A stretch of DNA of 63,940 nt, the filler included, from an uncultured archaeon (GTDB lineage: Archaea > Iainarchaeota > Iainarchaeia > Iainarchaeales > 1-14-0-10-31-34), in assembly GCA_964442255.1 (NCBI GenBank). It is 3 parts of 3 records of this genome, joined end to end, with 100 filler letters (N's around TTAATTAATTAA, not from the genome) between each part and the next. Parts side by side here need not be neighbours in the genome. Positions count along the whole stretch, not along the records: positions 27,639 to 54,926 come from CAYTYC010000020.1; 2 more parts are not named here. One strand, given 5' to 3'. The translations under genes were made by a program, and so were the position numbers. The notes beneath the pieces are model-generated. The model made no database searches. It had not been told where the DNA came from and was given only the letters and a program-made list of their open reading frames with translations. Within the stretch, counting starts at the first letter, position 1; the number at the start of each line of letters is the position of its first letter. Below, piece by piece: positions 28,815-40,298 of the stretch.

Positions 28815-28965
28815 GAGCTAAATAGGCGCAAATAATAATATATTTCTCACCTTACTGCTATCGCCTAACTGCCTTCTTTTTTCCCCCTTTTCCCCCCGAA
28901 AGGCAGCCGGCTTGAACTGGTGTTCAGGGAATAGCTGCCTGCCCCTGGCTTTGCTTTTTTTTGCG

Positions 28966-29607
28966 TTAGGCTTTGGAAACATTTAAGTCTTTGGCGTGTT
29001 CGACGTAAAAGCCCATGTCTTTATGGGGGTCTATTTCTTTTTTGACTTCAAAAAAATGTTCGTCTTCGGAATAAAAAGACCCGCTTGAGTAATGCTTGTG
29101 CTTTATCGCGTAAATTTCGCTTAAAACCACTGAATCTTCTGCGTCTATTTCAGAGAGCTTTGAAATGAATTTGCTTGACTTCATGCCGCAGTCCATTAAT
29201 TGAATTAAGTTTTCGTCAATTAATGACCTTAATTCCACTGAGCGGCCTTCAAAAACTTTCAGGCTATACCTCCCCCTCCTAAGCAAGTAAGCGGCATCTG
29301 AAATAATTTGCTCTAATTGCTTGGGGTCAGTTGCTCCCACAAATGGTTTGACTTTTTTGAGGGCTTTGCGGTCTTTGTTGAATACATATGCTTTCAGGTC
29401 TCTTTTAACAAAATCGTCATTTAACAAATTAGACACTGAAACCAGGTAGTTTATCAGGTATTCTTTAGTTGACTTATTAATTACGGTATCGGAATGCAAC
29501 TCCCTTACCCTGGAGAAAAACTCGTTGATGTTTTCAATCCAAGGCTTTTCCTCCTGCTTAAAATAGGTCAAGTAAACATTGTTATCCATGGCGGTAAATT
29601 TTTTCAT
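28966..29607 (-). CDS. Divergent PIN-domain protein
   Basis: AMDNNVY...DAEDSVVL...FYSEDEHF acidic pattern. Confidence 0.65.
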   Translation of the reverse strand: MKKFTAMDNNVYLTYFKQEEKPWIENINEFFSRVRELHSDTVINKSTKEYLINYLVSVSNLLNDDFVKRDLKAYVFNKDRKALKKVKPFVGATDPKQLEQIISDAAYLLRRGRYSLKVFEGRSVELRSLIDENLIQLMDCGMKSSKFISKLSEIDAEDSVVLSEIYAIKHKHYSSGSFYSEDEHFFEVKKEIDPHKDMGFYVEHAKDLNVSKA

Positions 29608-29615
29608 GAGAAAAA

Positions 29616-30284
29616 TCAGCTCAAAAGCTTTTCCATCAATTCTTTGTGTTTTCTCGTTAAATCAGCGTCATATAATTGAACTCTGTTAAAAATGCCCTCT
29701 TGAAATATTTTCTTTTTCTTTTGCAAGCAAAAAATCAAAGAAAAAAAGGTCAAATAATCAATCACATAGTCATACACGGGTTTTTTGAATTCTTTTTCAA
29801 AACAAGCCATATTCGCAAGAGCCTCCAGCTTTTCTTCTGTATTAAATCTTGTAACGGTATTGAATATTTTTTTTATGACGGCGTTTCCGAATTCAAGATA
29901 TTCTTTAATTCTTGATAAATAGATTCTTGATAGCTGGTATTTCTTTAAATCTATCTTGTTAGATGTTCTTGCGGCGTGTATTTTTTTGTTAATCTTTGAA
30001 ATTTCTTTCTGCAAATATTGCTTTTTAAGCATTAATTGGAAGATAGACGCGAATTTATCCACAGGCCATTCGCTGTCAAAAGCAGTAACCCTGAACTCTC
30101 TGGCCAAACCGCTTAAAGTCAAAGGCAAACGGTTGAAGTTGCCTAGATTGTGCTCAATCTCTATTTTGAATTCGGAATCTCTTTCCTTAACTAAAATTAT
30201 CTGCTTTGTTACCTTGCTTACTTCGGGCGCCACATATGTTTTGCAGGGGGTAAGCGCCTGGCTTAATGTAATGGTTTCGGGCAT
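29616..30284 (-). CDS. Hypothetical protein, probable partner of the PIN gene
   Basis: 222-aa AT-rich ORF 8 nt upstream of PIN gene. Confidence 0.6.
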   Translation of the reverse strand: MPETITLSQALTPCKTYVAPEVSKVTKQIILVKERDSEFKIEIEHNLGNFNRLPLTLSGLAREFRVTAFDSEWPVDKFASIFQLMLKKQYLQKEISKINKKIHAARTSNKIDLKKYQLSRIYLSRIKEYLEFGNAVIKKIFNTVTRFNTEEKLEALANMACFEKEFKKPVYDYVIDYLTFFSLIFCLQKKKKIFQEGIFNRVQLYDADLTRKHKELMEKLLS

Positions 30285-30670
30285 TTTTTGACCTGAGAAG
30301 CTCGGGCTTCTTTATTCCATGGGGGCATTGTTGTATTTTAATTTTTCCTTTTTATAAAGCCTTTCGCCTATAAGTGCCTCCCTTGAAAAAGCTTATTAAA
30401 ACACCTCAAGCTCTACATAACCATTTTTCTGGTTTTAATCTTTCCCTCTTCCCCTTTTTTTCTTTTTGCGTTCCCGCTTTGCTTAAGCCTTCGGCAGGGC
30501 CCGGGTTTGGCTTAATTTTTTGGGGGGTGTTGTTTTTGGTGTTGTGTCTGCTTCCAATGGAAACTTCTTTCTATTGCTAATGGAAAAACTTAAACGCACT
30601 TGGGGCAGAAAAGCTTTAAAAGATTGCTACACTAATATTACTAATCTGGTAAGATTGAGGTAGCATTAAA

Positions 30671-31168
30671 ATGGCTGAAAAATCCGGCATCAAGGGACTG
30701 TCTGACAAAGAGATTAAAGTAGTGTCTTTTTTGGAGTTGGAAGAAAAACGTTTCTTTTCCAAGAAAGATATCCGGGGCTTTTTTAAGTCTGAAAGCGATT
30801 TGTACAAGTATCTTTCTTCTTTCAAGAGAAAAGGCAGGGTTGTTAGAATAAACAAGGACAAGTATTATCTTGTCCCCATTCAGGCGCAAAAGGGCTGGGC
30901 CGAGCACCCTTTTATTGTGGCTGATGAAATGTTTAATGGAAAAGATTACTGTGTTGGCGGAAAGGCTGCCGTGCATTATTGGGGTTTTATCGACCAGCTT
31001 CCTGCGGTTATTGATGTTTTTTCCACTGCAAGGCAGGGCACTAAAACTGTTCTTGGAACAAAGTTTAGGTTTAAGAGAGTCAGAAAGCTTGGCAATTCTG
31101 TAAAGCGATTGATTGCAGGGCACAGTTTTTTGATTGCCAGCAAAGAGGAGAGCAAAAAATGGATTTAA
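30671..31168 (+). CDS. AbiEi-like antitoxin (type IV TA)
   Basis: wHTH, KDKYYLVP, YCVGGKAAVHYWGFIDQLP. Confidence 0.85.
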   Translation: MAEKSGIKGLSDKEIKVVSFLELEEKRFFSKKDIRGFFKSESDLYKYLSSFKRKGRVVRINKDKYYLVPIQAQKGWAEHPFIVADEMFNGKDYCVGGKAAVHYWGFIDQLPAVIDVFSTARQGTKTVLGTKFRFKRVRKLGNSVKRLIAGHSFLIASKEESKKWI

Positions 31169-38782: not shown

Positions 38783-39280
38783 TTATTTTAAAAACCTTTC
38801 AAATTCCTCCAGTTTTATTGGAACACAGAGTTTGGCTAGTTTGTTGAGTTTGTCATGCCTAACCAAAAAAGCGTATTTGTCTGCGGCTGCTTCTTTGGGG
38901 AGAGCCACAAACTGCATTCGAATATCAATTTTCAATAGTTTTCCAGTGAAATGGTTTAAATTAATTTTAATCTGGGCTTCGTTCCCTGAAAAGTCCCTGC
39001 AAACATCCAGGTTCACTTTTTTCAGCCCATGCCTTTTTTTGAGTTCCCTGAAAATGCAGTAAATTGTGATGCAGTAAAGCCTGACCCTTAAATTGGCTTT
39101 GCCTTTCTTTGAAACAGCGTACCTGTACTGCCTTTGACCGTGTTTTGCCCTAATTATTTTCCGGTTTTTGTCCGAAAACTTGTGCCCTAAAATAACTCCG
39201 CTTTTGCCTGTTTCCGCAACCATTACAGTGTAGTCTTTCTCAAAAATATCCGGGCCACTAACGTCAACTTCAAAGCCCAT
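38783..39280 (-). CDS. Short divergent DUF3800-like (RNase H-fold) protein
   Basis: FEVDVSG, DVCRD, AADKYA parallel the three acidic motifs of 28170-28814. Confidence 0.6.
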   Translation of the reverse strand: MGFEVDVSGPDIFEKDYTVMVAETGKSGVILGHKFSDKNRKIIRAKHGQRQYRYAVSKKGKANLRVRLYCITIYCIFRELKKRHGLKKVNLDVCRDFSGNEAQIKINLNHFTGKLLKIDIRMQFVALPKEAAADKYAFLVRHDKLNKLAKLCVPIKLEEFERFLK

Positions 39281-39414
39281 GAAAAAGATTTAACTTAAAA
39301 TGGTTTAAAACAATTAGGTAACCAGATTTCCCGTGAAACCCTGTTTTCCCCTGTTTTTTCCCCTTTGCTTCCCTAATTGCGGCAATCCAACTCCTCCTTT
39401 TTCTTGTCTTTGTG

Positions 39415-39783
39415 TCACGCGATTTGAATGTTTACTTTGGAGTAAATTGGAAGCGCGTAAACGGTTTGCCTGAATTTTTTAAGCGACACCAATCCAAGGT
39501 TTTTCAGGTAATTGATGTCCCGGCTGATTGCTTCCTGGTGCCGGTTCAGTTCCTTTGCAATCCGGGAAACAGATTTAGGCTTTTTTCCGGACTGAAACTC
39601 AATCAAATAATGCAGCAAATCCATTCTCTTTGGTGAAAGAAGCTTGTTCAGCTGTTCGTATGAGTTCAAATACAGGGTGTTTTTTGGCTGCCTAATCTCT
39701 TTCAAAGGCTTTCTGGAGAACAGCTCCTTGAAGTCGGCTTCCATATTTCCGCCAATCAAAATAGTCAACGTTTTTTTTGCCAT
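39415..39783 (-). CDS. HTH antitoxin (HVO_A0114-like)
   Basis: KLLSPKRMDLL...SVSRIAKELNR...ISRDINYLKNLGLV. Confidence 0.8.
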   Translation of the reverse strand: MAKKTLTILIGGNMEADFKELFSRKPLKEIRQPKNTLYLNSYEQLNKLLSPKRMDLLHYLIEFQSGKKPKSVSRIAKELNRHQEAISRDINYLKNLGLVSLKKFRQTVYALPIYSKVNIQIA

Positions 39784-39844
39784 TCCATCCACTTGTCTTA
39801 TATAACTTATATATTATATAACATTCACGTTATTAAAGCTTTCG

Positions 39845-40180
39845 TTATTTCAGCCATTTTTCTTTGTACCATTTAAGGTATTTTTTCCAGTTTCTTTCAA
39901 TTTCTTTTCTGAATTCTTTGAAGCTTTCGGGGTTTATTCCTTTTTCAGGTAGTTTTTCTCCTTTATGGTTTAGGTCGCGGCAGTATTTGTGCACATGGCA
40001 TTCTCCGTGCGCTGAGTCAAACTTGATGATTTCGTGTGCCCTGTCCTCAGTGAAGTGAACCTGAATTACACAGAATGAGGCAATTCTTCTTGTTTTCTTG
40101 TCGAGTTCAGTTCTCGAAATCAGGAAGTCTTTTAGCCCTTCATCCAGCGGCGTTTTCTTTTCAAATGCTTCAGTGCCCAT
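39845..40180 (-). CDS. Putative toxin (DUF6516/DUF7718-like)
   Basis: EIIKFDSAHGECHVH...IERNWKKY; upstream of HTH partner. Confidence 0.65.
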   Translation of the reverse strand: MGTEAFEKKTPLDEGLKDFLISRTELDKKTRRIASFCVIQVHFTEDRAHEIIKFDSAHGECHVHKYCRDLNHKGEKLPEKGINPESFKEFRKEIERNWKKYLKWYKEKWLK

Positions 40181-40298
40181 GACTTAAGTAAAAAACTTTG
40201 AAAGAATTAAGTTTCTTTGCAAAGGGCAGATTTCCTGTGAAGCCCGGATTTTTCCCTTTTTGCCCTCTACTGATTAATTCGCTTTGAATTGGTTTTAT

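Follow-up and report, generated by a model that had tools for sequence, protein, structure and literature searches.

Islands of defence and toxin-antitoxin genes are common, and their assembly is understood only for those with a visible recombinase and recombination sites, such as integrons, Xer-dependent modules and islands built by tRNA-targeting integrases. In bacteria, small toxin-antitoxin modules lie between Xer sites without a dedicated recombinase; the pdif modules of Acinetobacter plasmids are small, often toxin-antitoxin modules of this kind, bounded by short sites and lacking a recombinase of their own. The minimal mobile elements of Neisseria are unrelated gene sets swapped by general recombination via conserved flanks, and mobile or duplicated promoters and intergenic repeat families place the same intergenic sequence beside non-homologous genes. 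Here we describe an array of about 13 toxin-antitoxin, abortive-infection and orphan modules (positions 28815-40298) in a 63,940-base window of DNA from an uncultured archaeon of the order Iainarchaeales (GCA_964442255.1), in which related non-coding units of one orientation separate the modules. To our knowledge, gene exchange is almost unstudied in this group of archaea, which depend on other cells.

Copies of three junction motifs (A, B and C) named in a preliminary description of the window were aligned, and the resulting nhmmer profiles were searched against the whole 1.28-Mb assembly (51 contigs, 93.8% complete; here G000). Motif B has seven matches, with E 3.8e-17 to 3.1e-9, and all fall within the array; no further match in the assembly is better than E 2.4. 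Motif A gave four array matches and many weaker ones on many other contigs. For motif C, the four array copies counted earlier were recovered as strong matches together with a fifth, weak one (28878-28956, E 1.1e-6), and its only copy outside the array stands at the start of another contig (C10:12-81; a contig name before a colon marks coordinates outside the window). A repeat search of the window recovered the same motifs as families of direct repeats. At least one of A, B and C is present at 14/14 inter-module junctions between 28815 and 40298, and none in the 52-nucleotide (nt) gap within the operon of a helix-turn-helix (HTH) and a DUF7718 protein or in the gap between the flanking genes OB95 and pyrF. 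An all-against-all blastn comparison of the 16 intergenic stretches from 28815 to 40669 revealed 28 significant pairs, all of them direct and none inverted. The claim of mosaic junction repeats in one orientation is thereby borne out, and the composites A+C and A+B are present (Table 1).

Compared with the genome, the junction sequences gave 47 alignments within the array and 18 outside it; six of the latter fall at the starts of contigs C10 and C48, and the remainder are weak and pyrimidine-rich. Other toxin-antitoxin loci of the genome (HicAB on contigs C42, C19 and C15; a ParE pair on C16) lack units. As to whether the motifs are equally common between housekeeping genes, B and C proved to be confined to the array, whereas motif A also stands at promoters of housekeeping and repair genes.

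The units form one family of non-palindromic sequences of 90-130 nt, all in one orientation and packed tightly between the modules. Their similarity starts 2-18 nt past the stop codons of plus-strand genes on the left (B1, B2, B4 and B6) and, in seven junctions, stops 1-28 nt short of a minus-strand stop codon on the right. The plus strand of the units is pyrimidine-rich on the left and G/T-rich on the right, and this polarity is identical in four convergent, four divergent and six tandem junctions. The cores of B (22 columns, ATTGCGGCRWTCCAACTCC) and of C (about 20 nt, GCGTCCCCGCYTTGCTTAAGCC) are asymmetric. Copies of B are 64-95% identical in the core, 12-82% in the left flank and 16-57% in the right flank; since the asymmetric core of 20 nt is so much better conserved, a sequence-specific protein is conceivable. 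Which other copy a B unit resembles most switches by segment, from B2/B5 on the left to B1/B7 and B2/B6 in the core and B2/B6 and B1/B6 on the right, which makes the units mosaic. B2 and B5 follow a sub-motif, CTTCTGCCTTTCCC, that recurs within the partial unit at 36578-36640. Unit types are also zonal, with C at 28.9-32.7 kb and B at 33.4-37.8 kb. Runs of 5-10 T directly past the stop codons of plus-strand genes probably terminate these genes, and the left ends of some units probably carry promoters of minus-strand genes: the left end of unit C3 (32640-32661) has the box ATTTAAACATATCG in common with 35972-35993, and we read it there as the promoter of the adjoining minus-strand operon.

Table 1. 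Coordinates of the junction units, modules and related features. Positions are those of the window unless a contig is named; C0 to C4 without a colon are junction units; ORF, open reading frame; aa, amino acids.
Feature	Position	Strand	Evidence
C0, weak C-like unit	28862..28970	+	nhmmer E 1.1e-6
C1, divergent junction	30434..30527	+	nhmmer E 5.8e-13; blastn vs C2 87% over 53 nt
A1 + C2 composite, convergent junction	31951..32115	+	repeat search, nhmmer, blastn
C3 junction unit	32640..32746	+	nhmmer, blastn
B1, begins 2 nt past preceding ORF's stop codon	33426..33526	+	nhmmer E 3.8e-17, blastn
Sub-motif CTTCTGCCTTTCCC + B2, convergent junction	33713..33830	+	repeat search, nhmmer, blastn
B3, divergent junction	34422..34503	+	repeat search, nhmmer, blastn
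B4, convergent junction	35205..35316	+	nhmmer, blastn
Promoter piece + CTTCTGCCTTTCCC + B5, ends 3 nt before next minus-strand gene's stop codon	35972..36087	+	nhmmer, blastn
Partial unit, CTTCTGCCTTTCCC + 3' part of B, no B core; divergent junction	36578..36640	+	repeat search (families D5, D6), blastn vs 35212-35262, 33716-33743
B6, convergent junction	37709..37813	+	nhmmer, blastn
A2 + C4 composite	38439..38651	+	repeat search, nhmmer, blastn
A3 + B7 composite, ends 1 nt before next gene's stop codon	39306..39414	+	repeat search, nhmmer, blastn
A4, last unit; motif 50 nt upstream of DUF7718 start codon	40194..40271	+	nhmmer, blastn
Short MazE/AbrB-type antitoxin ORF, left-most module, no adjoining junction unit	27858..27986	+	Pfam MazE_antitoxin E 3.9e-7
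Orphan ORF, 214 aa	28170..28814	-	no family in Pfam, NCBIfam, PADLOC, PHROGs
Two-gene orphan module, 213 aa + 222 aa	28966..30284	-	sub-threshold DUF5975 only (Pfam); none in NCBIfam, PADLOC, PHROGs
AbiEi/AbiEii type IV toxin-antitoxin / abortive-infection module	30671..31950	+	Pfam AbiEii E 6.5e-30; PADLOC AbiEi E 1.9e-20, AbiEii E 8.9e-41
Doc toxin (122 aa) + small downstream ORF (53 aa)	32131..32624	-	Pfam Fic/DOC E 4.4e-8; TIGR01550 DOC_P1 E 6.9e-13
Orphan ORF, 215 aa, basic tail	32777..33424	+	no family in Pfam, NCBIfam, PADLOC, PHROGs
55-aa ORF ('TM peptide' in the preliminary description)	33542..33709	+	sub-threshold Pfam match only
HicA/HicB module	33930..34353	-	Pfam HicA E 1e-17, HicB E 1e-11
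Orphan ORF (116 aa) + YgiT/MqsA-type zinc-finger protein	34527..35194	+	TIGR03831 E 2.6e-6
RelE/ParE toxin + upstream 94-aa partner	35340..35958	-	Pfam ParE_toxin E 4e-7; TIGR02385 E 1.6e-7
Orphan ORF, 151 aa	36090..36545	-	no family in Pfam, NCBIfam, PADLOC, PHROGs
Fic-domain protein, SoFic-like	36687..37706	+	Pfam Fic E 3.9e-22; PADLOC SoFic E 3.5e-34
YafQ-like toxin (93 aa) + upstream 87-aa partner	37823..38368	-	TIGR00053 E 2.7e-15, below curated cut-off
Candidate small RNA between TATA-like box and run of eight T	38686..38778	+	uncertain; long stem
Orphan ORF, 165 aa; motif A reverse complement 46 nt upstream of start codon	38783..39280	-	Pfam: none
DUF7718 protein + HVO_A0114-type HTH protein	39415..40180	-	Pfam
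Right flank: OB-fold SSB-like protein (OB95) + pyrF	40299..41470	-	Pfam; G+C back at genome level; no unit between both genes
Motif A sites in array	31964, 38468, 39322, 40216		
Motif A sites outside array	C1:64178, C1:65303, C4:11447, C6:37109, C7:6543, C8:19436, C8:36994, C9:40887, C9:45940, C14:22414, C48:47		
GGAGGYATCGGAACCGCAGGTTCTGAT hairpin repeats, examples	C1:84150, C4:5523, C5:25854-26052, C22:20125, C24:4734-4818, C26:14462		

The modules face either way (five lie on the plus strand, the rest on the minus strand), and each has its own promoter, a TATA-like box being seen ahead of modules in both directions, as had been described. The module proteins are not paralogous to one another; the sole matches are a 23-aa Fic motif common to Doc and Fic (E 7e-4) and two others (E 0.006 and 0.015). 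Since the modules are unrelated, tandem duplication of whole modules is excluded. Families in Pfam, NCBIfam and PADLOC support AbiEi/AbiEii, Doc, HicA/HicB, a YgiT/MqsA-type zinc finger, RelE/ParE, a YafQ-like toxin, a SoFic-like Fic protein and the HVO_A0114-type HTH protein with DUF7718, whereas neither Pfam nor NCBIfam supports a 'PIN pair' (28966-30284), a 'DUF3800' protein (38783-39280) or a 'DUF4258' protein (34527-34877); six ORFs of the array belong to no family in the four libraries used (Pfam, NCBIfam, PADLOC and PHROGs). In G+C content, 22/22 module genes fall short of the genome mean (0.464; z -0.1 to -3.3), whereas the flank genes OB95 and pyrF exceed it. With its clustered recognised families and atypical G+C, the array is a toxin-antitoxin/defence island. 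Further to the right the flank is ordinary, with PIG-L deacetylase and phosphoribosyltransferase genes (Pfam).

The reading that we favour, tentatively and somewhat short of an even chance, is that recombination between units built and reshuffled the island. We favour it because the modules are unrelated to one another while the intervening units are homologous, uniformly oriented, mosaic and zonal, because the polarity of the units ignores that of the genes, and because convergent junctions are filled as well. A circular or otherwise incoming piece made of one module and one unit would cross over with any resident unit; module loss would be the reverse event, in which two direct units loop the module out. 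Recombination between units would keep these co-oriented whatever the gene direction, would render them mosaic and would make neighbours alike. General homologous recombination would be the simplest agent; a bolder proposal would be a site-specific enzyme acting on the conserved core and encoded beyond the contig end or outside the genome. Within this reading, homology-driven exchange takes the larger share, although by itself it is less likely than not, and what remains goes to a site-specific enzyme. The general-recombination swap without a dedicated enzyme known from the minimal mobile elements of Neisseria is the mechanism favoured here; the anchors there are flanking housekeeping genes at a single site, whereas here the anchor would be a repeated non-coding unit in an array of many slots.

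Several points weigh against recombination between units. No convincing unit match was found in 150 genomes of the order, and no recombinase on the array contig. With 60-87% identity over 50-100 nt, the copies make a poor substrate for homologous recombination. The assembled contigs of two public sequencing runs that hold the array gave no reliable deletion or circle joint, although rare forms would not show there; these contigs are identical to the array and break only at common repeat words. Parts of the units (motif A and the ATTTAAACATATCG box) are plainly promoter-related, so that a purely regulatory origin is possible, and the conserved core could be the binding site of a regulator or a chromatin protein.

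The preliminary description had proposed a gene-capture platform distinct from integrons. The architecture and the non-integron sites fit this proposal, and it is from the architecture that we likewise infer such a platform; neither gain nor loss nor excision of a module was seen in relatives or in the two public runs. We regard the island as integron-like in logic without being an integron: a defence island of cassette type whose oriented junction units form no hairpins. It does not amount to a categorically new system, and both movement and enzyme remain putative; the architecture of a capture platform is nevertheless present here without any known site type, in a genome of 1.28 Mb. Should the units be recombination substrates, they would provide a very simple swappable shelf of defence genes, and the 20-nt cores would be a direct handle for the discovery of an enzyme.

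A real though minor possibility is that the units are expression spacers only (promoter, terminator or insulator), spread by local duplication and gene conversion and without a role in moving genes, the island itself having grown by ordinary illegitimate insertions or insertions through flank homology. One promoter/terminator unit would then have been reused a dozen times in a reduced genome. The T-runs past plus-strand stop codons fit such spacers, as do the ATTTAAACATATCG box shared by two minus-strand operons at the left unit edge and a pair of 78%-alike stretches upstream of different genes in a relative (L152, see below). Yet the units also fill the four convergent junctions, where no promoter is needed, and their minus strand has no T-runs by which minus-strand genes could be terminated. 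Other promoters and terminators of the genome, including those of other toxin-antitoxin loci, have neither B nor C, and the constant polarity across all kinds of junction is left unexplained.

A further argument for spacers comes from motif A (GGGGGCASATTTCCTGTGA), a genome-wide element. Its core ATTTCCNGTGA occurs 21 times in the genome, and 15 of these copies are intergenic with a preceding G-run, 4 in the array and 11 elsewhere. Beyond 8 of the 15, a start codon follows at 46-50 nt on the opposite strand, with a TATA-like box in between. The genes behind motif A include those for a NurA nuclease, a radical-SAM/helix-hairpin-helix protein, the DUF7718/HTH paralogue pair (the paralogue of the array pair lies at C1:65303-66094 and has the same upstream motif A) and LAGLIDADG-like proteins, two with a Pfam match and a third alike by eye. 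Within the array, A3 and A4 keep the usual spacing to minus-strand genes and A2 lies about 100 nt upstream of one, and A1, in a convergent junction, serves no gene. Allowing one mismatch at most, motif A was found 11 times in this genome and in 0/150 other genomes of the order. We read it as a lineage-specific promoter-upstream element, not as a cassette border signal. Motif A thus behaves like mobile promoters and intergenic repeat families, from which B and C differ in being present at one locus, in fixed orientation and at convergent junctions too. A comparison of A with the 3' half of C showed similarity beyond shuffles in 3/16 pairs, all involving A2 (vs C1, C2 and C3; z 3.4-4.5); the other 13 were not beyond shuffles, A4 vs C3 having z 2.5.

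Origin recognition boxes (ORBs) combine a dyad core with a G-run and cluster as inverted pairs about an AT-rich stretch next to orc1/cdc6. The core of motif A resembles ORB cores (PMC3528665), and we guess by analogy that it could be the site of an Orc1-type regulator; its G-run stands on the opposite side when compared with one haloarchaeal ORB printed in that paper. Orc1-2 is a promoter-binding damage regulator (PMC9738581), and the genes behind motif A may constitute a regulon for repair or stress whose operator is ORB-like. The copy on contig C8 adjoins an AT-only stretch of about 35 nt and lies 68 nt upstream of an Orc1/Cdc6-like gene; it also has the usual spacing to a small divergent ORF that was read by eye. 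We regard this region (C8:19400-19520) as a candidate origin of replication, albeit one with a single box.

Recognition of the B and C cores by a trans-acting recombinase, whose gene would lie past the end of the contig, on a mobile element or in a different cell, is unlikely; it would make the array a hairpin-free archaeal counterpart of the integron, with double-strand sites and modules in either orientation. The array lies within the first 13 kb of contig C20 and begins 1.2 kb from the start of that contig. The window consists of three joined contigs and is not one molecule: positions 1-27538 are contig C19, 27639-54926 contig C20, and another contig follows a second joiner (54927-55026). 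The stretch at 27539-27638, N + TTAATTAATTAA + N like the second one, is an artificial joiner between C19 and C20 and not a scaffold gap. What was earlier taken for a gap at 27539 that could hide a recombinase is a contig boundary, near which the array starts, and purD is for the same reason no true neighbour of the array. A run of 100 N also lies inside the first contig (16799-16898); adjacency across N runs and joiners is not real. The statement that no recombinase is visible stands: there is none on the array contig, and the recombinases of the assembly are not linked to units. The sole tyrosine recombinase (PF00589; C3:62267-63133) is a 288-aa, XerA-like protein with a SAM-like N-terminal domain. 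No serine recombinase, DDE_Tnp_1 or Cas1 was found in the assembly. An IS200/IS605 element (Y1 TnpA + TnpB) is present at C21:4219-5660, and a solitary second Y1 transposase-like gene at C9:47136-47477, 1.2 kb from a locus with motif A and a small-RNA-like sequence. The genome itself reads as archaeal, given the Orc1/Cdc6-like gene, the Xer-type recombinase, Pfam families named after haloarchaea and TATA-like boxes, which peak about 30 nt before start codons.

Contigs C10 and C48 begin inside units (a C unit and an A unit, respectively), which would be expected if the assembly broke at the repeats of a larger or polymorphic island and thus fits the favoured reading; these starts may be further pieces of the array or of a second one. 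On C10 (1-3104), the C unit is followed by an orphan ORF, a GNAT acetyltransferase gene and then a small-RNA-like copy with motif A (3015-3104), and on C48 (1-61) the A unit lies beside a gene for a UvrD-PD-(D/E)XK helicase-nuclease.

It is improbable that the array consists of small integrative elements piled up at one RNA gene, with the units as attachment-site copies of the end of that gene and the integrase lost or located elsewhere. Co-oriented direct repeats at each border are the classic signature of serial site-specific integration, and the reverse complement of motif A directly follows tRNA-Thr (C1:64104-64176) and small-RNA-like sequences (at C9:45950, C14:22424 and C10:3104). These RNA genes differ from one another, however, and motif A is hence a copy of none of them. 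The window holds no tRNA and no Rfam family, and no junction matches any of the 20 tRNAs that ARAGORN found in the incomplete assembly (best E 0.056, 11 nt). B matches nowhere else in the assembly and C only at the start of contig C10; no integrase lies beside units in the genome, and the relatives searched lack units. The small-RNA-like copies (C9:45950-46090, C14:22424-22500, C10:3015-3104 and C27:133) end in AACCGCAGGTTCTGATG beside motif A, and they contain AACCGCAGGTT, which is presumably complementary to the 3'-terminal region of 16S rRNA. Unit C was also considered as a tRNA fragment, its reverse complement being T-loop/acceptor-like by eye; it matches no tRNA. Allowing up to three mismatches, this tRNA-like sequence was found nowhere else in the genome except in a tandem repeat of 39 nt on contig C3. 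Over its first 18 nt, the latter array (C3:13469-13850, CATTCAAAGCCCGGCCCAGCTTTTCAGGACGCACCATGA, with an N gap inside) is similar to the 3' half of unit C taken as reverse complement.

Xer-dependent modules, comparable to pdif modules or to integrative mobile elements exploiting Xer, in which the host XerA acts on the units as dif-like sites, are very improbable. XerA is indeed the only tyrosine recombinase found in the assembly, and such modules need no dedicated enzyme. Sites of pdif modules are palindrome-like, 28 bp long and alternating, whereas the cores here are asymmetric, all direct and embedded in units of 100 nt. The dif sites have 11-bp imperfect inverted repeats around a 6-bp spacer (PMC2958812). 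A scan for 11-nt arms with a spacer of 4-10 nt and at most two mismatches gave eight matches in the 14 junctions; the B and C cores contain none of them, and all eight are operator-like palindromes specific to a module.

Barely credible is a classical integron array without integrase (cluster of attC sites lacking integron integrases, CALIN) with the units as attC sites. Most archaeal integrons are CALINs, and toxin-antitoxin and defence cassettes abound in them (Ghaly et al. 2022; PMC9668308); the array shares with them, and with sedentary chromosomal integrons, the tandem, short accessory modules, the co-oriented border repeats, the lack of an integrase in view and repeats that are more alike within the genome than anywhere else. 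Sites of the attC type are imperfect inverted repeats (R''-L''...L'-R') of 55-140 nt whose single strand forms a hairpin. Folding of 11 junctions as plus-strand single-stranded DNA gave z scores of -2.1 to +1.2, with one below -1. RYYYAAC...GTTRRRY box pairs occur in 1/14 junctions, and their count (two, one per strand) was reached in 54/300 shuffles. The sole attC-type end boxes are those of C0 (GCCTAAC...GTTAGGC, 109 nt apart), whose single-stranded fold has z -1.1 on the plus strand and -1.6 on the minus strand. Together with the lack of inverted junction matches, the folds and the box scan speak strongly against the units being attC sites, and the preliminary description was right to set them apart from these. 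The units are moreover mosaic and zonal and lack attC hairpins and R/L boxes, and integron cassettes are mostly promoterless and in one orientation, whereas the modules here have their own promoters and face both ways, five of them on the plus strand. A CALIN may lack the IntI integrase, a tyrosine recombinase that has an additional, IntI-specific domain and is encoded beside an attI site; no IntI was found in the 93.8%-complete assembly, where a gene adjacent to the array could be missing beyond the contig end 1.2 kb away; the Xer-type tyrosine recombinase lies on another contig.

The array is present in two public runs from a single microbial-mat study, at 0.96 and 0.69 of the words sampled. 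Independent contigs of run X1 span 28969-43230 in eight listed pieces with 0 differences; 30609-31215, 36007-36254 and 38656-38763 are not among these. Three joins overlap the next piece, at 33764-33792 (B2), 37737-37765 (B6) and 40407-40436, the B2 and B6 overlaps being 29 nt each. Depth is even at about 8x over array and flank. Run X2 (about 4.5x) has uncovered bins outside the array as well, and they are uninformative. The only joint within the array, from 38359 to 39893 with 12 letters between, consists of pieces of about 29 and 18 nt, judging by loose ends at 38331 and 39910, and we take it for a chance match from another organism; the loose ends at 28533, 29729, 33868, 37222, 38626 and 39272 belong to contigs that are not of this genome; the one at 39272 contains 'CAACTCC', with which the B core ends. 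An assembly or binning artefact, with repeats collapsed or misjoined, can practically be dismissed: the window is itself made of joined contigs and Logan unitigs break at the repeat words of B2 and B6, yet the whole array lies on one 27-kb contig, the listed X1 contigs match it without a difference, and depth is even.

Searched with covariance models of B and C, the 150 genomes of the order gave only single weak matches (E 3.7e-4 to 0.01; 11 and 4 genomes, respectively). As no relative carries units, cassette content could not be compared. The B pattern with 0-1 mismatch has three single matches in 40 relatives; the one examined (in L003) is coding-like by eye. The exact B core was found in at least 119 stretches of metagenome contigs, with one match each among the 80 listed, which is about chance level, and the B 20-mer has 21 single matches in 185,579 species genomes, all in unrelated bacteria. 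A search for pyrF, the right-flank gene, in the eight genomes of the family gave no match at E 1e-20 or better. Toxin-antitoxin genes are scattered in relatives of this family, with a few small clusters. These clusters (G003:C56; G005:C12, C14 and C34; G002:C1) contain no comparable array, and direct repeats in them are few and mostly placed around tRNA genes or derived from one duplicated promoter. In L152 (G003:C56), from a relative in the same family, the intergenic stretches 2378-2463 and 5229-5319 are 78% identical direct repeats upstream of different genes of a toxin-antitoxin cluster, a small-scale parallel to the junction units.

Miniature inverted-repeat transposable elements or repeats derived from insertion sequences, which have terminal inverted repeats and a cognate transposase, were also considered and rejected, the junctions showing no inverted matches and not matching the TnpA/TnpB or Y1 loci. 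A hairpin repeat family of the genome, GGAGGYATCGGAACCGCAGGTTCTGAT, has 19 copies, often beside tRNA genes, and the word CTTAAGGGAGG occurs 60 times when one mismatch is allowed; neither is present in the array.

Module-specific inverted repeats occur at four toxin-antitoxin promoters (34515-34602, 38371-38401, 32627-32653 and 35960-35990) and look like antitoxin operators. The RNA proposed earlier at 38686-38778 found no support, as its fold is no better than shuffles (z -0.44) and it has no Rfam match. On the plus strand at 32066-32130, a TATA-like box, a perfect 9-bp hairpin (GGTGACCAC...GTGGTCACC) and a T-run lie antisense to the 3' end of the Doc operon; judged by these elements, this could be a tiny antisense RNA or a terminator.

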